From IMG/VR virus record IMGVR_UViG_2565956612_000010: a stretch of DNA of 11,461 nt. One strand, 5' to 3'. The stretch's first letter is position 1. Every line of letters starts with the position of its first letter. Positions 1 to 3,347 of this stretch are shown here, piece by piece. The position numbers and the translations under genes were made by a program. Source of the DNA: a virus. Its lineage: Duplodnaviria > Heunggongvirae > Uroviricota > Caudoviricetes. A model generated the notes under the pieces. That model was not told the origin of the DNA and searched no databases. It saw nothing but the letters and a program-made list of their open reading frames with translations.

Positions 1-141
1 CTACTGCTTACACTGTAAGAACGCCGCAAACTCCGCTCCCCAGAAGCTCATCCGTATTTCGCACAGCGAACCGTGCAGCATCCAGATGATGAGGATTGCC
101 GTCACGCAGAACGTGATGGCCGTAAGCGATTTTTGCGACAT
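1..141 (-). CDS. hok: Hok/Gef-family type I toxin, 46-aa small membrane peptide
   Basis: Reverse complement of 1..141 gives ATG..TAG encoding MSQKSLTAITFCVTAILIIWMLHGSLCEIRMSFWGAEFAAFLQCKQ. It has an N-terminal hydrophobic helix and the SLCE(I/L) and E-x-AAF-L-x-C-K motifs recalled from HokA/HokC/HokE. Below the 60-aa cutoff of the ORF track. Confidence 0.7.
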   Translation of the reverse strand: MSQKSLTAITFCVTAILIIWMLHGSLCEIRMSFWGAEFAAFLQCKQ

Positions 142-271
142 AGCACTTGCTCCTTTTCCGGAGAGGCGCTAACCTTTCACTTGTCAAGGTAATGCGGTTA
201 GGGCCTCGGTTAAACAGAGATGTTTTCCGGGGCCTTTCCACATCTGGCCTTCGGGTATTCCCTCCGACCAT
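8..271 (-). CDS. Putative mok-like reading frame overlapping hok in another frame
   Basis: 87-aa ORF with an ATG at 269..271 covers the whole hok ORF in a different frame, as mok does in hok/sok loci. The protein has no recognisable fold; the call rests on position only. Confidence 0.3.
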   Translation of the reverse strand: MVGGNTRRPDVERPRKTSLFNRGPNRITLTSERLAPLRKRSKCYVAKIAYGHHVLRDGNPHHLDAARFAVRNTDELLGSGVCGVLTV

Positions 272-331
272 CAGCCGAAAGGCACCCGCGCGTAATCTAT
301 CGCTTTTTTGTTACTCCGGCAATTCTGCCTG

Positions 332-592
332 TTAATTCTGAGGTAAAGGCAAACTCATCTGATTGTTTCCCCTGTGTGAAGCTGGCAGCTCATGCCACGG
401 GATACCATCTGAAGAGTGAACGCCGGAGGCGTGTTTCGATGTGAATTTATGGAAAGCTTCCAGTGTTGAGAAGCATACACCGCATTCCAGGTTGTTACAC
501 TGGTAATACTTTTGCCGCACGGTGTTTGAATCATTTTCCGGACGACTGGTGCGGATACGGGCAGATGCGCCACAAAGCGGACAACGGAACAT
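332..592 (-). CDS. ogr: Ogr/Delta-family zinc-finger late-gene transcriptional activator
   Basis: N-terminus MFRCPLCGASARIRTSR...YYQCNNLECGVCFST matches P2 Ogr (MFHCPLC...RTSR...YHQCQNVNCSATF) with four Cys in C-x2-C...C-x4-C spacing. Strong SD AAGGGAGG sits 5 nt upstream of the ATG on the - strand (593..605). The C-terminus is longer than P2 Ogr. Confidence 0.8.
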   Translation of the reverse strand: MFRCPLCGASARIRTSRPENDSNTVRQKYYQCNNLECGVCFSTLEAFHKFTSKHASGVHSSDGIPWHELPASHRGNNQMSLPLPQN

Positions 593-793
593 AGCGACCT
601 CCCTTAACGTGGTGCTGGTTCTATTTTAAGTTGTACTGGCTCAGACTCCAACAGCCACTCCGTCTTGAGCAAAAAGTTAGCGCAGGAGTGCATGTTTAAA
701 CCTAATTGCTTTAAATATAGTGATTCGGATAACCAGATGACTTGTGTTTATATATGATAACGGTAAAAATCTACTCTCTATGAGAATGTTGAT

Positions 794-1954
794 GTGAAAA
801 TGGTCACTATGAAGATAACTAAGACAAATTTTGGTATAACTATTAATGATACTTTAATAACGGATTTTCGCGATGTAGTTAATGAAAGAGATTTTGTTTA
901 TAGTTACTTCATAAACAGAAATGGTAAAAATCAGTTCAGCCCTATTTGTTCATGCATGGATTGGATTACTGTTTCTGTACGCTATCTTATGAACATCCCT
1001 GAAATATCTGAAGACATTGATATTAAAACTATGCAGATTTATACTATTATATCATCAATCGATATAATAGTGGAAGCGGTGCGGCAACTCCATCGTATTA
1101 TTGAAAGTGACAATAATTTTATGAAATGGCCTTTTAAAGGCTCTGTTGATATTTTTAAGGATAAAATACATTATCTTTCGCATGAGGATGATGACTCTTA
1201 TTTTAAGAGTATTCGCGCTATTTTTGGTGCTCACCCTACGAATCTTAAAAATAACCACGGGGAGAGATTATTTGCGAGCTGGCCTCATTTTTATGCACTT
1301 AATAATAATGATTTTACTATAAGTCTTTATAATAACAAACCCGGTGTGGATGATATTATTTTTGGTATTAAATTTAACGAGCTTATCTCATATGTTGAAA
1401 GTAGGTATAAATATCTAGAAAAACTAATGGACTCTATAGTGGTAATTCGTAACAACCATTACGATGTTTTGTCCGCGCAAGTTATATCATCCACCGATAA
1501 CATTTATGATGAGTTGAGGCTGCTTCTTTCAGAAGTCGCTATACGAGGTAATAATGATTATTACCGAATGCAATTAGAAGAGTTAATTCATTTGTTTGAT
1601 GGTTGTGTTAAAGAGAAGCATCTTCAAGATGAAGTAAATGAGTTTTTGAGTAAACTCTATCCGATCGTTTTAGAGATTAGAAATAATCTTCAGAAAATGA
1701 ATGTTGAAGATTTAACAACTACTTGTGATGTGATTATTTCGAGGCTTCCTACAGGTGAATTAAGTTATGTTCTTCAGAAGATGTTTTCTTGTCTCCACTC
1801 AGATAGGGATGATCCATTGAAGGATTATTACCTTGATACTTTAAATAAATATACTGAAGGTTGGTATAATTTTTGCTCTGCAGATAACGATAGTACAACC
1901 TTGCTAAAACTTAGAATGATGCTGTATCGGTATCATCAGCAAAAACTTGATTAA
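794..1954 (+). CDS. Hypothetical protein; AT-rich orphan accessory gene (moron), candidate anti-phage defence or abortive-infection protein, family unassigned
   Basis: Long uninterrupted ORF of 386 aa in a region visibly far more AT-rich than the flanking phage genes. N/I/K/D/Y-rich protein, no Walker A motif seen. Track start is GTG at 794; in-frame ATGs at 800 and 809 are alternative starts; no strong SD. It is antisense to the flanking ogr and D. Confidence 0.6.
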   Translation: MKMVTMKITKTNFGITINDTLITDFRDVVNERDFVYSYFINRNGKNQFSPICSCMDWITVSVRYLMNIPEISEDIDIKTMQIYTIISSIDIIVEAVRQLHRIIESDNNFMKWPFKGSVDIFKDKIHYLSHEDDDSYFKSIRAIFGAHPTNLKNNHGERLFASWPHFYALNNNDFTISLYNNKPGVDDIIFGIKFNELISYVESRYKYLEKLMDSIVVIRNNHYDVLSAQVISSTDNIYDELRLLLSEVAIRGNNDYYRMQLEELIHLFDGCVKEKHLQDEVNEFLSKLYPIVLEIRNNLQKMNVEDLTTTCDVIISRLPTGELSYVLQKMFSCLHSDRDDPLKDYYLDTLNKYTEGWYNFCSADNDSTTLLKLRMMLYRYHQQKLD

Positions 1955-2084: not shown

Positions 2085-3191
2085 TTAGGTCTGCGCAATC
2101 CATTCAGGGATTTTTGTTTCAAGTTCAAGCTGCGTGGTAAAGCCGCTGTTATCAATGGTGTGCTCGGCTTTTGCAATAATCCAGTCCTGATTATCAATCT
2201 CGCTTTTAAATCCTGTTACCGTGCCATGCATTTCGGGGTAGAGTTCTGCGCGTCCACGTGCCAGTGTGATGGAGAACGCTGCGGCTCCGCGTTGTAGCTG
2301 CTGCCACTTTGCCGCCGCTGCGCGTCTTGCTGCCTGCTCGTTCTGATAAGTCTTGCGTAACACAAACACATTGCCTTCCGCGCCTTCCATATAATCACCT
2401 TCACGGCTGCTGCTTTTCTCCTTTTTGGGTTTTGGCGGTTTACGGCGTTTTACGCTGACTTTTTTCTTTTTCCCGTAATTAAGATCAAGCCAGTAGGCGC
2501 GTACCCCCGTATACGCCTCGCGGTCAGCAATACGGAACTGATGGCGATCGCTGCTGCTGCGTGTAATGGCGAACGAGGGCAACGGCTGGCCCTGTGCGTT
2601 CACGCCACCACCTGGCATGATGAATAACAGATTGCCGCTTTTTACCGTGGTGATTGCGCCCAGCATTTCCGCCATGCGCGTAAGGAAGGACATGTCGCTT
2701 TCTTCGGTCTGGTCGGCGTGGTCGATTTCAATATCCATCAGCATTTCGCTGATTTGCGGTTTCAGGCCGTATCGGTGAGCAATTGCAGACACCACGCGTT
2801 CAACGGTCACATCATGCCAGGATACTTCGCGCTTGACGTTAAATTCATCCCGAAAATCTGCGCTTCTGGCTGAAATGGTCAGTCTGTCGGGCGGTCCTTC
2901 ATGAGCAATTTCATCAACAATGTAAGTGCCTTTTTCTGTCAGCGGTTCTCCTTTCCAGCCAATGAGAACCGTCAGGCGCGCGCCCCGTGGCGGTAGCTGC
3001 AACTGACCATCCGCATCATCCAGCGTGATGGTGAGCTGGTCCGCTTCAAATCCCCGGTTGTCGGTCAGTGACAGGCTCATCAGGCGCTCTGCCACGCCGG
3101 ACAGCGTTTCCCCCTCCGCGAGAATATCAAAATCCGGCATTTTCACGGGGTCTGTGCCCTGACTGAGCAATTGCATGGTGGTGTCGGTCAT
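2085..3191 (-). CDS. D: P2 gpD-like tail protein (late control gene D family)
   Basis: Matches P2 gpD at LTDNRGFEADQL, SWHD, FLTR and the lysine-rich KKKVSVKRRKPPKPKKEK stretch. Start placed at the internal ATG 3189..3191 (MTDTTMQ...) because it follows the strong SD GGGAGGG; the upstream ATG at 3210..3212 is the track start. Confidence 0.88.
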   Translation of the reverse strand: MTDTTMQLLSQGTDPVKMPDFDILAEGETLSGVAERLMSLSLTDNRGFEADQLTITLDDADGQLQLPPRGARLTVLIGWKGEPLTEKGTYIVDEIAHEGPPDRLTISARSADFRDEFNVKREVSWHDVTVERVVSAIAHRYGLKPQISEMLMDIEIDHADQTEESDMSFLTRMAEMLGAITTVKSGNLLFIMPGGGVNAQGQPLPSFAITRSSSDRHQFRIADREAYTGVRAYWLDLNYGKKKKVSVKRRKPPKPKKEKSSSREGDYMEGAEGNVFVLRKTYQNEQAARRAAAAKWQQLQRGAAAFSITLARGRAELYPEMHGTVTGFKSEIDNQDWIIAKAEHTIDNSGFTTQLELETKIPEWIAQT

Positions 3192-3347
3192 CTTTCCCTC
3201 CCTGTGCAGCATGGTCGCATGTGCGTGCGGAGGGGGTTACTGCTTTTTGTTGTCGCCGTGGCGGGAGAACGGCGCAGGGGTGAGATTACGCGCGTGGTGG
3301 GTGATGATTGTTGCCGAATCATTTAACGGATACAAGGGGCTGAAGCT

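Follow-up and report, generated by a model that had tools for sequence, protein, structure and literature searches.

The window, by which we mean the whole 11,461-nt stretch of viral DNA that was analysed, opens with a hok toxin gene of 46 aa (MSQKSLTAITFCVTAILIIWMLHGSLCEIRMSFWGAEFAAFLQCKQ) at 1..141 on the minus strand. The initial annotation, made from the letters alone, had proposed a Hok-like peptide at this place. The ORF is indeed present, and in the comparison with Hok/Gef family profiles that the same annotation had singled out the peptide passed. It matches Pfam PF01848 (HOK_GEF) with 29.9 bits (cut-off 22, E-value 4e-7), residues 7-44 being aligned to positions 5-42 of the 42-position profile, and it matches phrog_251 of the PHROGs collection with an E-value of 1.3e-22. 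In an identical genome RefSeq names the 46-aa ORF 'Hok/Gef family protein' (WP_000078916.1), and the identical peptide is catalogued as 72_1621 in Table S2 of a recent survey of Hok homologs (Escalera-Maurer et al., 2026 preprint, bioRxiv 10.1101/2025.08.07.668861). The best NCBIfam match is HokA (NF007290) with 34 bits, below its cut-off of 89, and the Hok subfamily model (NF007279) gives 21.6 bits, below its cut-off of 73. Since the scores fall below both cut-offs, the window Hok belongs to a separate cluster (cluster 72) and is not HokA.

All seven residues of the family logo (M1, C16, T18, L30, C31, E32 and E41 in the numbering of the Hok preprint) have counterparts in the window peptide: M1, C12, T14, L26, C27, E28 and E37. 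In an alignment with HokB and HokC, to both of which the peptide is ∼25% identical, M1, C12, T14, E28 and E37 are invariant. Residues 6-22 (LTAITFCVTAILIIWML) read as hydrophobic, and an N-terminal helix is expected of the family. The dN/dS of hok against divergent relatives is 0.23-0.33; judged by sequence comparison, the 46-aa ORF is a genuine member of the Hok/Gef toxin family, an assignment far beyond chance, and its peptide is under purifying selection. A Shine-Dalgarno sequence (SD), GGAG, can be read 8 nt before the AUG (150..153, minus strand); Table S2 of the Hok preprint (10.1101/2025.08.07.668861) predicts the same SD ('GGAGC') for the identical peptide.

The hok locus was said in the initial annotation to lie just downstream of ogr, and this holds: a gene for an ogr/Delta-type late-gene activator of 86 aa is found at 332..592 on the minus strand (Pfam PF04606, Ogr_Delta, E-value 5.2e-14; also RefSeq), with 190 nt separating it from the hok ATG downstream. 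P88-like phages also have ogr and hok linked.

Farther into the window, an orphan ORF of 386 aa (794..1954, plus strand) lies between ogr and the gpD tail gene. Its GC content is 0.31-0.36 against ∼0.53 around it, and it gave no match in Pfam, PHROGs, NCBIfam or PADLOC. The ORF is absent from P88, and three small ORFs stand in its place in pZ1323PEC0009-2; the region 794..1954 looks like a variable cargo slot, possibly occupied by a defence or moron gene. The gpD-like tail gene itself (2085..3212, minus strand) is a 375-aa ORF matching PHROG 52 with an E-value of 4e-164. The gpD-like gene annotated by RefSeq in Escherichia coli strain 2D (L001 6084-6881) has 266 aa, with a pseudogene fragment adjoining, and its annotated start is probably too short.

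Predicted messenger RNA, promoters and antisense RNA

Position 1 of the window is the last base of the hok stop codon, in agreement with the initial annotation, which had also placed the 3′ fold-back element of the mRNA outside the window. We recovered this element by reading the sequence left of the window from a 100%-identical E. coli genome; positions 2..800 of the window are 100% identical to several E. coli chromosomes, e.g. that of strain 2D. With both ends predicted, the complete hok mRNA has 409 nt, window positions 287 to 1 followed by 122 nt beyond the window.

The predicted 5′ leader of this mRNA (142..287, minus strand, with +1 at 287) is defined by a full-length alignment to Rfam model RF01794. 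Model positions 1-157 align to window 287..128 on the minus strand with 48.4 bits (E-value 1.1e-9), which is below the gathering score of 59. Six other loci of the cluster likewise gave full-length alignments to the hok strand, with all scores sub-threshold (31-50 bits). By these alignments the whole of the leader is homologous to the leaders of hokB and hokC, and cluster 72 forms a divergent branch that scores under the curated threshold of RF01794.

As controls, hokC and hokB of E. coli K-12 were matched by RF01794 on the hok strand with 118 and 110 bits, respectively (L017 402-554 and L018 567-718). In both, the match begins where the leader begins and finishes, at the final model position, on the G of the hok AUG. 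Thus, despite its 'sok' name, RF01794 models the hok leader in the sense orientation, and strand calls made with it indicate hok and not Sok. Taking the minus-strand 'sok' match in the window as the direction of Sok was rejected, given that the K-12 control matches the hok strand.

Upstream of the leader we read a predicted hok promoter (294..322, minus strand) in which TTGCCG (322..317) is followed, after 17 nt, by TAGATT (299..294) and, 6 nt further, by G287. Most aligned relatives retain both hexamers at this distance; the exceptions are L010 and L016, where a clear −35 is absent, and in L016 the −10 is absent as well. On the opposite strand a predicted sok promoter (147..175, plus strand) consists of TTGCTC (147-152), 17 nt, TAACCT (170-175), 7 nt and G183. 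This geometry is that of the annotated sokB promoter (TTGCCG-17-TAAGAT-7-G) and close to that of sokC, and the hexamers are conserved in relatives. The predicted hok promoter matches 7 of 12 consensus positions and the predicted sok promoter 6 of 12. A consensus promoter scan reported neither at the locus, so both promoter calls rest on homology and not on signal strength.

The candidate sok promoter was found where the initial annotation had suggested searching, on the plus strand within the mok frame. The RNA itself had been expected at about 200..330 of the plus strand, and the prediction differs from this: the Sok-like antisense RNA, of ∼60 nt, is predicted at ∼183..242, partly outside the expected interval and for the most part upstream of it. 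Its ends follow from mapping sokB and sokC onto RF01794. Model position 106, which is window 183, is where sokC and sokB both have their annotated 5′ end; the 3′ end of SokC falls at about position 45, i.e. window ∼242. The predicted RNA would be made of a free 5′ tail of 17 nt, a hairpin at 200-236 (GGGCCUCGG...CCGGGGCC) and then UUUCC. Its predicted fold resembles those of SokB and SokC, and the 75-nt stretch around Sok has a z-score of −3.9. The hairpin was not flagged as a terminator by the terminator scan.

Folding of the minus-strand transcript, which had also been suggested, yields a structure of the type expected of hok mRNAs in the model. The minimum free energy (MFE) of the 409-nt mRNA is −178.4 kcal/mol (z = −8.17), and nt 1-15 are paired with nt 337-352, giving a predicted 5′-3′ closure. 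The partners are a tac-like 5′ element (GGGUGCCUUUCGGCU; 273..287, minus strand) and an fbi-like element that lies outside the window, 51-66 nt beyond the hok stop. The 3′ UTR beyond the window contains a hairpin and then AAGGCACCC, complementary to the 5′ end GGGUGCCUU; an intrinsic terminator was located by the terminator scan 21 nt past this AAGGCACCC element. A local hairpin (mRNA nt 117-147; 141..171, minus strand) is predicted in the MFE fold of the whole mRNA to sequester the SD and AUG of hok.

We compared these elements across 25 distinct relatives. The tac/fbi pair GGGUGCC and GGCACCC is present in 24 of the 25, with 95% of cells paired; in the SD/AUG hairpin 95% of cells are paired too, and the changes there are one-sided. 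Hardly any variation is seen in tac, fbi, the SD hairpin and the promoters where the coding sequence falls to 65-84% identity. Only 1 double-sided change per helix is seen among the 25 distinct mRNAs; with compensatory changes almost absent, the comparison gives no independent proof by covariation. The helices are conserved in sequence within the cluster, so it is this conservation, together with homology to the family at large, that supports the structure. The sampling available for covariation consisted of a species-level genome scan that gave only five loci and of the 80 best viral loci, all of which encode the identical peptide.

We also calculated how the fold may respond to loss of the fbi element. 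With forced structures, the closed state is favoured over the tac-stem state by 7.1 kcal/mol when fbi is present, and the two states are within 1 kcal/mol of each other when it is absent. In the ensemble the hok ribosome site is not clearly exposed on fbi loss, the median opening cost changing from 10.9 to 9.6 kcal/mol. A relay independent of mok, in which fbi loss would allow the tac stem to form, GAGGC to pair with GCCUC and the SD to open, finds support in the energies of forced structures and at some truncation points; we do not claim it, as ensemble accessibility barely changes.

The frame overlapping hok

A mok-like frame at 8..271 on the minus strand was part of the initial annotation. 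An 87-aa open frame overlapping hok does exist at these coordinates, but we judge that it is not a conserved gene. The frame has zero matches in Pfam, PHROG and NCBIfam. Its ATG at 271, mRNA nt +17, falls within the tac element and is not preceded by an SD. The frame is closed in P88, 933W, L010, L013 and L014, among others, with no start codon in either overlapping frame. A start is missing from both overlapping frames also in 20 of the 80 loci with the identical Hok peptide, and among these 80 loci the position of the stop of the 87-aa frame is polymorphic, from +83 to +134. When ATG, GTG and TTG starts in any frame are allowed, 26 of 90 related loci (P88 and 933W included) still have no ORF running from the leader through the hok SD. 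The through-ORFs of the remaining loci differ in starts and frames, and leader indels of 1 nt put alleles into different frames. As far as these alignments go, cluster 72 has no conserved mok frame, and the 87-aa ORF is allele-specific. A conserved short upstream ORF, beginning at the conserved AUG at mRNA nt 45, was considered as another candidate and rejected; its length ranges from 1 to >60 codons among alleles.

A shorter frame, starting at AUU 193..191 or UUG 187..185, could act as mok in the window allele. The window allele would then be of the classical R1 type, the overlapping frame serving as a working mok that starts perhaps at one of these two codons and not at ATG 271; Sok would block translation of mok, and it is this translation that would open the hok ribosome site. 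In favour of this, the window and 50 of the 90 sampled loci have the frame open with the same candidate starts, and the AUU follows a conserved GAGG at a distance of 10 nt, where the Rfam alignment has the mokC AUG. Moreover, the hairpin holding the hok SD and AUG is conserved and closed in silico, and in R1 such a site needs upstream translation to become available (PMC9841398). Against this, AUU is rare as a start codon, the UUG lies 16 nt from the GAGG, and ATG 271 lacks an SD and falls within the tac stem. The leader indels of 1 nt change the frame among alleles, and the 26 loci without a through-ORF, which include the viable phages P88 and 933W, keep a Hok under purifying selection. On balance we consider an R1-type working mok in this allele doubtful.

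Carrier prophage and relatives of the locus

The ogr-hok segment is found at 96-98% identity in P2-family phages (Xuanwuvirus), namely P88, 500465-2, P884B11, Chuche and PhiR44_2. In E. coli strain 2D the gene order is pheT, ihfA, hok, ogr, ∼33 kb of P2-like genes with the integrase at the far end, and btuC. A 25-bp direct repeat, GGCCGCTCTGCGGCCTTTTTTCTTT, which is the ihfA terminator, brackets the 33-kb element (L003 417-441 and 34750-34774). The window is thus a P88-like (Xuanwuvirus, P2 family) E. coli prophage inserted at the ihfA terminator.

Comparison of prophage boundaries in related genomes, which the initial annotation had recommended for deciding between prophage cargo and host flank, gave a clear answer. 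In favour of a chromosomal gene next to attR and outside the prophage, hok is the last gene before ihfA, and many provirus predictions stop at the hok stop codon. The att core repeat, however, is reached only 264 bp beyond that codon, so that hok lies inside the left repeat. The ihfA-btuC spacer of K-12 is contiguous across the repeat sequence and has no hok, i.e. it is an empty site, and the genome of phage P88, like other sequenced phage genomes, contains the entire hok locus, terminator included. The position of hok inside the att repeats, the empty K-12 site and the presence of the locus in packaged phage genomes together establish hok as phage cargo, and a host-flank origin is so improbable that we give it practically no weight.

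In 47 of 80 IMG/VR provirus loci (L019-L098) the contig breaks off precisely at the hok stop codon, so that the 264 bp up to the att core are missing. The start of the window at that codon is therefore an artefact of boundary calling. Provirus callers that stop there remove the 3′ UTR of the toxin mRNA, with the fbi element and the terminator, together with the att arm.

Two further features of the carrier were seen outside the window. The strain 2D prophage carries ParM and ParR-like partition genes beside its replication endonuclease (L003 25764-27039), and a P88-like phage with int, cox, ParM and hok has its complete genome deposited as a 34.5-kb circular 'plasmid' (NZ_CP148288.1, L099). 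The P88-like phage may persist as an episome; such persistence would fit a hok/sok maintenance module.

Of 5426 complete E. coli genomes, 1555 contain the hok locus family, and a single genome may have up to seven copies. When one genome per species was searched, the family was found almost only in Salmonella, besides records that resemble contaminated assemblies. Stx phages (Sp5, 933W) carry a relative of the locus beside lom (in 933W, L005 1501-1810, 82% nucleotide identity); this second hok is distinct from the studied hokW-sokW and is unannotated or called 'MokW-like'. The product name 'MokW-like host killing' in phage records is merely the name of PHROG 251. The lom-adjacent Stx-phage variant, whose locus has 82% nucleotide identity, is listed as 72_1589 in Table S2 of the Hok preprint (10.1101/2025.08.07.668861). 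In plasmid pEA5_1 of Escherichia albertii (L008) a hok copy at 84-221 has its second codon changed to a stop (ATG TAG), and a more divergent, intact Hok-like ORF (478-579) adjoins it. A further relative, with 85% nucleotide identity and a 45-aa peptide, is located upstream of trbA on the IncI1 plasmid CP098928.1 (L010 460-597). The occurrence of this relative on conjugative IncI1 plasmids indicates that the hok cluster moves between phages and plasmids.

Known hok systems and likely role

The Hok preprint (10.1101/2025.08.07.668861) reports that hok is enriched in prophages and that 42 of 45 tested Hok homologs are toxic. Both 72_1621 and 72_1589 were in the set cloned for toxicity (drop) assays, and neither is among the three exceptions named. 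The preprint covers the coding sequence only and explicitly leaves aside mok, Sok and mRNA structure; what we add to it for cluster 72 is a map of the mRNA, Sok and mok parts.

Of the features of the hok/mok/sok system of plasmid R1 described in PMC9841398, the locus has a Hok/Gef peptide, a predicted cis-antisense RNA whose candidate promoter overlaps the hok SD region, the predicted tac/fbi closure of an mRNA of ∼400 nt, a terminator right after fbi and a hok ribosome site predicted to be closed. It differs from R1 in lacking a conserved mok frame across the cluster, in its distant Hok of 46 aa in place of 52 aa, and in its carrier, an integrating P2-like phage and not a low-copy plasmid. 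The likeness to hokB/sokB and hokC/sokC lies in the shared Rfam model, an alike Sok start, the promoter spacing and the Sok hairpin. The Rfam score is nevertheless 48 bits here against 110-118 for the K-12 pair, and whereas K-12 mokB and mokC have annotated AUG starts, the window cluster has no equivalent conserved start.

Another hok/sok module carried by a prophage is hokW-sokW of the Stx2 prophage Sp5, which sets an experimental precedent for a function in the phage: induction was reported to lead to loss of Sok, synthesis of Hok, earlier lysis and a doubled release of phage (Takada et al. 2021, PMC8621323). HokW differs from the window Hok in having 51 aa, being HokD-like and beginning MKQQKAM, and its mRNA starts GGGUGCUUGAGG. 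We examined whether the locus is hokW-sokW and rejected this identification: the primers given in PMC8621323 show a HokD-like gene, and the 933W relative of our locus sits beside lom.

Taken together, we interpret the locus as a hok/sok-type type I toxin-antitoxin module of Hok cluster 72, which a P88-like prophage integrated at the ihfA terminator has as cargo at its ogr end, and we put the probability of this reading at roughly 0.85. By homology with R1, hokB and hokC, the weak promoter at 322..294 (minus strand) would make a stable mRNA of ∼409 nt. This message would be locked by tac/fbi pairing of its 5′ and 3′ ends and would hide the hok SD and AUG in a hairpin; slow trimming of the 3′ end would take the lock off. 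A short-lived Sok of ∼60 nt, starting at G183 on the plus strand, would pair with nt 46-105 of the mRNA, and the paired message would stay untranslated and open to RNase III. Once the supply of Sok stops, Hok would be made and would damage the inner membrane. Unlike in R1, translation would not be coupled by a conserved mok frame. The role most likely served by such a module would be stabilisation of the prophage, or of its episomal form, through the death of cells from which it has been lost; alternatively, it may help lysis at induction, as hokW-sokW does, or exclude other phages.

The locus might instead be a silent relic, in which the ORF is intact and Hok is no longer made at harmful levels, as at the inactivated hok loci of K-12, so that it would be only a hitch-hiker of the prophage. 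A relic would be in keeping with the absence of a conserved mok, with two promoters that are both weak by consensus and with a ribosome site predicted to remain closed, and pseudogenised copies such as the one in L008 are known. The dN/dS of 0.23-0.33 argues the other way, and so does the near-invariance of tac, fbi, the SD hairpin and the promoters despite the divergence of the coding sequence. The presence of the locus family in 1555 of the 5426 E. coli genomes, in up to seven copies, also speaks against a relic, and the identical peptide belongs to the tested set of the preprint (10.1101/2025.08.07.668861) and stands outside its non-toxic exceptions. We therefore regard a silent relic as improbable and keep to the interpretation of a type I module given above.

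The locus is, in these terms, a standard hok/sok-type module, already annotated and catalogued. Its value as a discovery is small, given that it is annotated in >1500 complete E. coli genomes and in several phage records; the practical gain is a set of predicted coordinates for the hok mRNA, promoter, Sok and fold-back element of cluster 72. The absence of a conserved mok in a prophage-borne cluster is the one point that is new, and only mildly so. We can suggest, tentatively and with less than even confidence, that cluster 72 hok loci work without mok, Sok acting through RNA refolding and RNase III only, or that translation takes a route so far undescribed for the hok family, e.g. by 5′ processing or through a standby site as in tisB/istR-1. 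The non-conserved mok poses a cheap, testable question on how far the R1 mechanism generalises. If control is indeed free of mok, the prophage-borne cluster 72 would be a regulatory variant of the hok paradigm.
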